Origin: an uncultured Acidimicrobiales bacterium
Lineage (GTDB): Bacteria; Actinomycetota; Acidimicrobiia; Acidimicrobiales; UBA10347
Length of the DNA: 64,000 nt
Reading direction: 5' to 3'
Assembly (NCBI GenBank): GCA_943788915.1
Contig: CALSSD010000010.1
Coordinates: 295,296 to 359,295 of the forward strand
Shown here: in pieces, positions 30,001-33,000 of the stretch
Position numbering within the stretch: the first letter of the stretch is position 1
How the letters are laid out: every line of letters begins with the position of its first letter
Made by a program: the position numbers

Positions 30001-33000
30001 TGTGTGATCGTCGCTATGGGTGTGCATTTGCTTGACAATCTGCGTCTCGACCGACTCGCCGAAGCATGCAAGCGCCACGACCGATGGTCGTTCCTGTTTA
30101 CCATCGCCCCGTTGCGGATCGAGGGTGGCACTGGCTCACCAGTTAACCCGGTGGCGCTCTTCTAGATCTGCGCACTCACGAAACAAGGTCGAAGGTCAGA
30201 GCGGTCGCCGACAGAGGCGGCAGCAGTGTTGTGGCCCCACGATCAGTGATCGCCACATCGGCGAATGGCTTAGAGGCCACCACCTGCTGGTTGTCGTAGG
30301 TGTTCTCGGCTTTTGGATCTTGGCCGGTGACGATTTCGGCGCTGGCAAGCGATCTGATCGTGCGGTCAGCGAGCGTGATCGACACAGGGGCTGGTTCATC
30401 GAGACTGCGGTTGGTGACGAAGACGTGTAGCTGATCCCCATCGATGATGGCGCTGGTGTCGATCAGATCGACGGTGCCGTAGGTGGGGCTGTCGTAGGTC
30501 GGGCCGTTTACCGACGGTTGCAATGAAATGCCCGTTCGACGGGTGGCGTATTGAGCGAACACGTGGAAGATGGATTGGACCAGCATGTCGTCACCACGCG
30601 TCTGGATCGGAGCGATGACGTTGACGATCTGTGCGATATTGGCGATCTTCACCACGTTGGCGTGGCGGATGAAGCTGTTCAGGAAACCAGCAACGACCAA
30701 TGCGTCTTCGAGGTTGTAACGCTCTTCGATCAAATGAGGCGCAACCTTGTTCGCACCCTCCATCTCCATGTTCTTGTACCAGACATTCCACTCGTCGAAA
30801 CACAGCAGCACGCGACGGCGGTGGCCATGCTTCGCCTGGATATAACGACATAACGAATCGGTGGCTTCGATCTGAGCATCGATGGCGTTTGTCACCGCCA
30901 GGAAGTCTGCGGTGTCGTCAGTGGGGTTGCCGACGTAACGGTGCAGGCTGATGTAGTGAGCGACGCCGCCCAGGACTTCGAGGACCTGTCGATCCCACTC
31001 GAGGTAGGTATCGAGCTCCACCATCGATGAGCCCGACGCAACGAGCTCAATGCTGCGGTCGACGTTCTTCATCATCCGAGCTGCCTGCAACGCTCGTATC
31101 GCATAGTCGCTGGCGGGGCCATGGCCGAGCTGCCATGGCCCGTCCATCTCGTTCCCCAGGCACCACAGGGGAACGCGGTGCGGTTCGGCGCTGCCGTTTG
31201 AGGCCCGCATGTCGGCGTACTTCGTGCCTGTCGGGGCGTTGCAGTATTCGACCCAATTCCGAGCTTCTTCAGGAGTGCCCGTGCCCAGGTTGACCGCCAG
31301 CATTGGTGACCAATCCATCTTGCGGCACAAGTCGATGAACTCATCGGTACCGAACTCGTTGGTTTCAATACTCGACCACGCGAGTTCTCGAAGTGTTGGG
31401 CGGTCTGCCTTGTCGCCGACGCCGTCTTCCCAGTGGTATCCGGAGACGAAGTTGCCACCCGGGTATCGCATGACCGGCATCTTCAGCTGGTCGAGGGCGC
31501 CGAGGACATCGGTCCGCAACCCGGTTTCATCGGCGTGAATCGAACCAGGTTCGTACACGCCCTCGTACACGCATCGCCCCATATGTTCGAGGAAGCCGCC
31601 AAAGATCCTTTCATCGACGTGTCCCACAGGGAATCCGGTGTGCAGCGTGATCGACGTGGGTTCCATGGAAGAGAGTCTTGCCGGGGCATGCCGCGTGCCC
31701 AAATGCCGTGCGGATAGTGGTGAAGCAACGTGCCTCTGACCGGCGGTGCTCAGATGTGACATGCTGGTTATATGACTGAATTACTCGACCGGGCGTATGC
31801 CGAGATCATGTCGTCGATTGTCGCCACCGCACAGGCGCCTCATTTCACCGAGTTGGCGTCCAGCCTTGATATCGAGATCGAGCAAGGCCGAGAGCTCATG
31901 CACGAACTGGTGGCCATGACACCTGGCTGGATGCATCCGGGCACGGATTTCTTGGCGTCATTCCCCCCATTTAATGTGCAGCCGACCCAGTACCGGATCA
32001 CGGTCGACGACAAACACGGCTGGTTTGGTCAATGAGGTTTCGAATCGCTGGCCGTGCGCTGGCTCTTCCCGGGATCAACAATTCGCATCGAGGCACCGTG
32101 TCTTTGTTGTGGTGAGTCGATGACCATCGAACTGTGTGACGAGGAGCTCCTGGTCACCGAACCGGCCGAGATGGTCGGGTATACAAGCCAAATGGTCGGC
32201 GGTGATGCGGCCAGTCGGCCATTCCGTTGAGCGAGCATGAACCTCTTCCGGTCGGAAGAACACGCTCGTAACTGGTCCGGTTTCGATCCCGAGTTCAGCT
32301 CCATGTTGAAGCCGGTTGCCGAATGGGCCGATATCTTCGCCAACCCGTTCTTTCGGGAACGGGGACGGCCTGACTACATCAGCTGGACTCGCAGCGAAGC
32401 AGGACAAGCCGCCTTCGTTGAGCTCCGGTCTCGGCTCACGCCCTAACGCCAAGACCTCGATATTTAATCGTTGTAGGCCATGTAGGCCGATGCCAGCGCG
32501 AAGAGGATGAAAAGGCCGGCGACGACAACTTGGCTTCCGACCCCGCCGATGTCGACACACCCGTCGTTACGTTCGCTGCGGCATGCCTGCTGTAAATTTC
32601 GCGAGCTCCATCCGAGGCCAGCAACGATGAAGGCCGTGATTGCTGCGCCACGCAGCCACTTCTTTTGATTGAAGCGGCGGCTGATGATGGTTGACACCCG
32701 CTTCAGGGGCAGCAGAGACAGCACAAAAATGACAAAGAAGATCACGAATTGGACAATGAACTTCACCATAGGTGCCTCCGAGAAACCGCGAACTCGGGTC
32801 GACGGTCTGCTTCTCGTGTGAGTGTAGGACCACCGGGTGAATCACCGGGAATGATTACATCCCCTGCGGTGGGAAATCACCAGCACGTTACTCGGATGGG
32901 CGCACGCTGGATTACGACCGAAGTCGAGGATGAAACTGCTCGGCATCGAGCACGGAGTCAGTCCACTCAGCTGATCTGGTGAGTGCTGCCGCAAGCCGGC

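Follow-up and report, generated by a model that had tools for sequence, protein, structure and literature searches.

Two in-frame UGA codons in a marine Acidimicrobiia gene are consistent with a MerB-fold protein carrying selenocysteine at both metal-ligand positions

The window (the whole 64,000-nucleotide stretch of an uncultured Acidimicrobiales genome that was analyzed) carries a forward-strand frame that opens at the ATG at 31772 and meets two in-frame TGA codons before it reaches a TAA. An earlier note on this DNA had described 31772..32230 as a 152-codon mini-protein related to MerB. Its start and its in-frame TGA at 32033-32035 (within W-F-G-Q-*-G-F-E) stand, but its length does not: the triplet at 32228-32230 is itself an in-frame TGA, and 71 further codons follow up to the TAA at 32444-32446. 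With the TGAs at codons 88 and 153 read as selenocysteine (Sec), a single open frame of 224 codons results. The match to MerB, which had been thought to be limited to the first 67 of 126 profile positions, extends in this read-through product over positions 3-117 of 126 (E 8e-16). The features of the locus are the following.

31772..32446, forward strand: predicted MerB-fold coding sequence, 224 aa, with two putative UGA-Sec codons and the stop codon TAA at 32444-32446
32033..32035, forward strand: UGA 1, predicted Sec88, at the equivalent of MerB Cys96
32042..32044, forward strand: Glu91, at the equivalent of MerB Asp99, the proposed general acid
32047..32063, forward strand: putative SECIS 1, a 6-bp stem (GCTGGC/GCTGGC) with the loop CGTGC and G at loop position 2
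32099..32110, forward strand: C110-L-C-C113, a CxxC at the MerB Cys117 position, possibly a structural or a second metal site
32228..32230, forward strand: UGA 2, predicted Sec153, at the equivalent of MerB Cys159 and SaoL Sec162
32243..32260, forward strand: putative SECIS 2, stem TCTTCC/GGAAGA with the loop GGTC, encoding L-F-R-S-E-E

This is almost certainly one full-length gene, in which UGA would specify Sec at residues 88 and 153. Despite its broken or miniature appearance, the gene is, on the evidence of its sequence, an apparently intact two-selenocysteine relative of MerB with Sec at both metal-ligand positions. The three segments of the gene each show amino-acid identities of 0.61-0.84 to eight relatives. 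UGA 1 is intact in the contigs of four out of four independent sequencing runs, and UGA 2 (context F-R-U-A-S) in three of the four, the remaining run (X17) having no coverage there. Among the strain variants within the gene in four runs, 10 of 12 were silent, and so were six of six that lie 3' of UGA 2. Such a frame might also be a pseudogene, a product of misassembly, or two or three distinct small genes. Database entries do treat the pieces as separate proteins, an ATG two codons past UGA 2 opens the last segment, and the host selB is frameshifted in the assembly, all of which would favor such readings. However, the breaks are always TGA and never TAA or TAG, four loci have Ile in place of that Met and are still homologous, and full-length Cys/Cys homologues are known (P0005, P0123, P0126 and P0131). 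Silent-site conservation across all segments speaks against a pseudogene, and the other runs confirm both TGAs against an assembly error. We consider these readings largely refuted and very improbable. Decoding of UGA as Trp or Gly throughout the genome, or as Cys by a non-canonical tRNA, is scarcely credible. Three JGI entries (P0003, P0004 and P0105) have W at both sites; yet long ORFs in this genome stop most often at TGA (706 of 1426), the sole tRNA with a TCA anticodon is tRNA-Sec, and Cys is the natural alternative residue.

The hairpin reported previously after UGA 1 was found as described (GCTGGC-CGTGC-GCTGGC at 32047-32063, starting 11 nt past the UGA). All 104 distinct TGA alleles had its stem and loop G, compared to 6 of 32 Cys alleles; the sequences compared are related and not independent, and some hairpin bases were fixed by the search pattern, equally in both sets. 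The third-position C27 was likewise present in 104 of 104 TGA alleles and in 20 of 32 Cys alleles, and two alleles exhibited a G-C to C-G swap. The third positions of SECIS 1 thus appear to vary as expected of RNA. SECIS 2 was nearly invariant in 122 distinct alleles; a compensatory T-A pair occurs in five alleles, at the cost of a Glu-to-Lys replacement. Other selenoprotein-type genes of the host genome have hairpins of like shape and with like loops. A SECIS rule formulated post hoc fits 893 of the 148,867 genomic TGA triplets (0.6%), both sites included. Neither hairpin stands out in folding energy against shuffled sequences (z of +1.3 and -0.7), hence the support for them comes from conservation. 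The Rfam search gave no match to a SECIS family.

Residues 69-185 correspond to the Pfam MerB family (PF03243; 58.6 bits against a gathering cut-off of 27). The placement of Sec at the Cys96 equivalent and of Glu in place of Asp99, which had been proposed from recall, was borne out by alignment to the PDB MerB chains. With plasmid MerB, for which structures are solved, U88 aligns with Cys96, E91 with Asp99, C110 with Cys117 and U153 with Cys159. A profile of 98 family sequences gave the identical register and matched MerB2 with E 3.5e-13. The AlphaFold2 model (pLDDT 96.9) displays the whole MerB fold, which Foldseek matched with this model at E 9e-10. In the VIA structure search MerB2 was matched at Z 17.6 (rmsd 3.3, 192 aligned); by both searches the only significant matches were MerB and MerB2 (VIA Z 15.9 besides 17.6), and the next, unrelated one in VIA scored Z 4.9. 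Sec is restricted to the two metal-ligand positions among family members. Glu occupies position 91 in 120 of 120 database homologues among the matches listed, where the search did not require it; its presence in all 139 records of the pattern search is no test, because that search pattern demanded Glu. Asp99 was never found retained in the two-Sec clade. At the place of this CxxC the 139 records have CLDC in 113 cases, CLCC in 16, CPDC in two and other sequences in eight, so that a CxxC at the Cys117 position would not be essential in all relatives.

The statement that relatives have Cys at site 1 turned out to be an artifact of the databases. A DNA pattern in which site 1 could be TGA, TGC or TGT yielded at least 120 metagenome loci; among those listed, 98 have TGA and 22 have Cys (98 of 120 with TGA). 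At site 2 the same listed loci have TGA in 112 of 112 readable cases, eight of the 120 being unreadable (six contig ends, one frameshift directly after the TGA and one break). Sec153 is more conserved than Sec88. In the protein databases, 115 of the 120 homologues listed (123-392 aa) stop exactly before site 2, and at site 1 these 120 have Cys in 117 cases and Trp in three. The three Trp entries represent TGA translated under another code, and the excess of Cys arises because the length filter (123-392 aa) hides genes broken at site 1. The 90-aa first fragment, used as query, retrieved 2,692 clusters at 90% identity; the 120 fragment matches listed all terminate at G-Q or A-Q, and the few named ones are from Desulfobacterales, Desulfobacteraceae, Deltaproteobacteria and Planctomycetota. 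This is a large bacterial family, cut into fragments in the databases.

Within the host genus the gene is found in five of eight other genomes (three with two TGAs, one with one TGA and one interrupted by a contig end), and 401 genomes of the class hold 12 places at 40% identity or more, seven of them with two TGAs. Cys-bearing homologues among Acidimicrobiales do exist, as noted before, but site 1 is more often TGA. In a quick IQ-TREE tree of 124 rows (without a firm root, and with the SaoL rows left out), Sec at site 1 appears in all main clades and Cys is patchy; site 1 changes between Sec and Cys at least nine times, while site 2 rarely changes. This pattern suggests repeated Sec-to-Cys replacement at site 1. 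The SECIS 2 pattern had zero matches in viral contigs, and plasmids returned only three MerB-type records, all distant (22-25% identity). Acidimicrobiia also contain another MerB-like family (L020-L022, L024, L037 and L040-L052), which has Cys at both sites, no TGA, Glu at 99 and a Y/H-C-A-C-C motif. A distant subfamily with one Sec (L019, L023, L036, L038, L039, L053, L181-L184, L187 and L188) keeps Cys96 and Asp99, and has only Sec159 and the hairpin sequence in common with the two-Sec clade. By its residues, this subfamily would be nearer to the canonical lyase signature.

The host possesses tRNA-Sec (selC), selA and a TGA-containing selD of the Sec type. Its selB adjoins selA and, with one extra base relative to four congeners, occupies two frames (G000:C5:465856-467600, near 466225). 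In five of five congeners selB is intact. The extra base is likely an assembly error. Of 28 genomes with a TGA-bearing homologue, 27 were found to have selA (26 of them above the cut-off, one with the gene split over two contigs), compared to 142 of 201 genomes of the class. The exception, G067, is 98% complete and has a one-TGA homologue with a conserved hairpin (L183) and no selA hit, which may be due to a missing contig or to Sec decoding having been lost recently. The class as sampled commonly uses Sec (selA in 142 of 201 genomes). We take the host genome to be rich in selenoproteins, with UGA and a matching hairpin in frames that we labeled by motif as FdhA-like, GPx-like, GrdB/PrdB-like (several), UGSC-type, peroxiredoxin-like and AhpD-like. 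A loose genome-wide scan of the host for Sec gave 458 candidates, mostly noise. The stretch is present in marine and estuarine sequencing runs from many studies. Coverage from two RNA runs (X15 and X16) is even over all 2.2 kb, and these runs may be DNA; a third (X17) covers only parts of the gene and is at most a weak hint of a transcript. Nothing above chance was seen in a promoter and terminator scan.

The gene is a stand-alone one: an arabinofuranosidase gene points away from it on one side, and an ORF for an unknown membrane protein runs toward it on the other. Its neighbors in the window are not mer genes, in agreement with the earlier note, and are unrelated to the SAO locus as well. 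The host genome, 94% complete, gave no merA over the cut-off and no hgcA; saoB and saoC were not found either, in weak searches whose controls gave no positive. No mer gene family was present among 102 nearest-neighbor ORFs (loci of at least 2.5 kb), and neighbor clustering with a Pfam scan gave no conserved partner except for cNMP-binding genes beside cyclase fusions. The neighboring ORFs are mostly catabolic enzymes. merA exceeded the cut-off in two of 17 genomes with close homologues. In one of these, G096, a MerR-like ORF and merA lie 2.5 kb from a two-Sec fusion of the MerB-like domain to an AAA domain (L189:7441-13585), with three unrelated genes in between (a PIN-type toxin-antitoxin pair and a short-chain dehydrogenase). 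In the other, G354, the contig with merA encodes a separate MerB of canonical type, away from the two-Sec genes.

According to the available text of two studies of MerB, Cys96 and then Cys159 bind Hg, and Asp99 protonates the carbon (PMC10114901; PMC4525700); MerB2, with Ser99, has little activity in the account accessible in PMC10114901. In the present protein, SelB bound to the hairpin after each UGA would insert Sec at 88 and 153, which sequence conservation makes almost certain. By analogy with MerB, two selenolates in place of its thiolates would clamp a soft metal(loid) bearing an organic group. Glu91, in place of Asp99, would protonate the carbon and so break its bond to the metal, and this longer acid may suit the longer metal-selenium bonds. 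Sec is ionized at cell pH. For this reason the proton could not come from residue 153, as it does in MerB, and would have to be supplied by Glu91 and water. Metal capture would be tighter and release harder, and in most hosts release would proceed through something other than MerA. In some relatives the site may have been put to a second use, as the sensing part of a cyclase or an AAA protein. We give a slight preference to this bis-selenolate/Glu lyase explanation as a whole. Judged by itself from homology, carbon-metal(loid) lyase activity is evenly balanced between yes and no. In its favor are the register of the active site, the match over the whole fold, the confinement of Sec to metal-ligand positions and the two-Sec fusion 2.5 kb from merA in G096. 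Against it stand the absence of merA from the host and most related genomes, the loss of Asp99 throughout, the lack of a conserved neighborhood, the extra base in the host selB and the genome G067 without a selA hit. Methylmercury is a tentative candidate for the substrate, and an organoarsenical or another organometal(loid) is as likely. With merA and a mer context lacking, it is unlikely that the family serves in general for ordinary mercury resistance.

The same pair of selenolates could instead be non-catalytic or very slow, holding a soft metal (Hg, Cu(I) or As(III)) with high affinity as a trap, chaperone or sensor, with free forms that buffer the metal and fused forms that signal through cAMP. 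Such a role agrees with the fusions, which make up 15 of the 139 records and mostly join the domain to an adenylate cyclase of the LipJ/Rv1900c type, in some cases to an AAA domain (fusion loci L029, L030, L032-L035, L058, L059, L062, L076, L094, L108 and L117; L028, L031 and L180). The fused cyclase domain matches LipJ/Rv1900c (PDB 1YBT) at E 4e-48 and is also assigned by Pfam, and a cNMP-binding gene is adjacent in four cyclase-fusion loci. A search for longer fusions with the C-terminal piece as query gave six proteins, one of them a cyclase. Part of the fold recurs in the copper chaperone NosL (VIA Z 3.9), the D99S variant of MerB binds Cu(II) in the available text of PMC10114901, and merA is absent from most genomes with close homologues. 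On the other side, most members are unfused, and the acid at position 99 in 120 of 120 homologues listed is what catalysis would need. LipJ, too, has a domain with an enzyme fold attached to its cyclase, so the fusions are also compatible with catalysis. We regard a trap or sensor without catalysis as rather unlikely.

A metal-free redox or group-transfer enzyme is similarly improbable. U88 and U153 would in that case alternate between selenols and a diselenide (in C/U forms a selenenyl sulfide), and the substrate would be a small organic compound of sulfur, selenium or nitrogen. The many redox-type selenoproteins of the host and the mainly catabolic neighbors would suit such an enzyme, and the frequent switching at site 1 (at least nine times), with rare change at site 2, resembles a resolving residue against an attacking one. 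No reductase partner is linked to the family loci, however; Glu91 sits at the acid position of MerB, and the accessible portions of the MerB-fold literature describe no redox function.

With MerB (3F0O, 3F2G and 1S6L) and Bacillus megaterium MerB2 (5C17) the protein shares the whole fold, including the N-terminal winged-helix part, the ligand positions 96 and 159, an acid at 99 and Cys at 117. It differs in that both ligand positions hold predicted Sec and Glu replaces Asp99; it has a CxxC at 117, no Cys160, only 17-19% identity and no mer operon. The NCBIfam MerB models NF009710 and NF033555 failed (24.9 against 193 and 20.1 against 200). The canonical signature of Cys96, Asp99, Cys159 and Cys117 (PMC8261052) reads here as Sec88, Glu91, Sec153 and Cys110. 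Pfam score and fold place the protein in the PF03243 superfamily; by NCBIfam scores, signature residues and gene context it lies outside canonical MerB.

SaoL (NF040728; bioRxiv 10.1101/2022.07.06.499078) is the nearest precedent; the accessible part of its description gives a MerB fold with Sec at the Cys159 equivalent (Sec162), database entries likewise truncated at that UGA, retained Cys99/Asp102, a CU motif, one Sec and a nine-gene SAO locus in anaerobes. The protein of the window has R-U, two Sec, Glu, a stand-alone gene and a marine Acidimicrobiia host. Its score with the SaoL model is 31.8 bits against a cut-off of 140, which upholds the proposed distinction from SaoL; the best of the 98 family members reaches E 6e-13. 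The further proposal of a second, independent Sec form in the superfamily holds for Sec88 only; Sec153 sits where SaoL also has Sec, and could have arisen together with that Sec or apart from it. The double selenoproteins catalogued in Table 1 of PMC13188914, as available (MbdU NF045648, the UxxU metal-binding NF041115 and others), have two Sec per chain in other folds, and no entry there is a MerB domain with two Sec. None of the models for these double selenoproteins matched the 98 family members. SaoL, with one Sec, is the sole MerB-like entry in the consulted portion of this 2026 inventory of 119 selenoprotein families (PMC13188914). A two-Sec MerB does not appear in the accessible parts of PMC9312934, deep-Sep, BSepDB or the Actinomarina preprint. 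We thus did not find one in the selenoprotein inventories as available, the families of Haft & Tolstoy 2025 being covered as tabulated in PMC13188914. In NCBIfam of June 2026 no model exceeded its cut-off for the protein of the window, and the same three models (NF040728, NF009710 and NF033555) alone match any of the 98 members. In the fused relatives the cyclase domain is common to the LipJ/Rv1900c class III adenylate cyclase (1YBT), whereas their partner is a two-Sec MerB fold; the gene of the window has no cyclase. The MerB fold and the Sec of SaoL are hence known, and what would be new is Sec at both metal-ligand positions of the MerB fold.

Surveys of merB count homologues by Cys96/Asp99/Cys159 on called proteins (PMC8261052), and would miss the two-Sec family twice, through truncated gene calls and through the Cys/Asp/Cys signature. 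The available text of PMC10114901 treats methylmercury loss independent of mer as unexplained, and the two-Sec gene offers a defined candidate enzyme for it. It is conceivable, though doubtful, that in Desulfobacterota and in Acidimicrobiia of seawater a large hidden branch of the MerB superfamily uses a bis-selenolate/Glu site to demethylate methylmercury or related organometal(loid)s with no need of MerA, and that its cyclase fusions are organometal-sensing cAMP switches. Were this so, a branch whose first fragment alone accounts for the large number of clusters given above would be invisible to merB surveys. The family also provides a natural Cys/Cys, Cys/Sec and Sec/Sec series of one metal site, and what appear to be two SECIS elements within a single short gene. 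Elsewhere in the assembly, near-duplicate stretches and tRNA sets occur on contigs C14/C3, C20/C5, C21/C5 and C28/C10, which fits the contamination figure of 7.7%. The window further contains a tRNA-Ala(CGC) at 25071-25145 on the forward strand.
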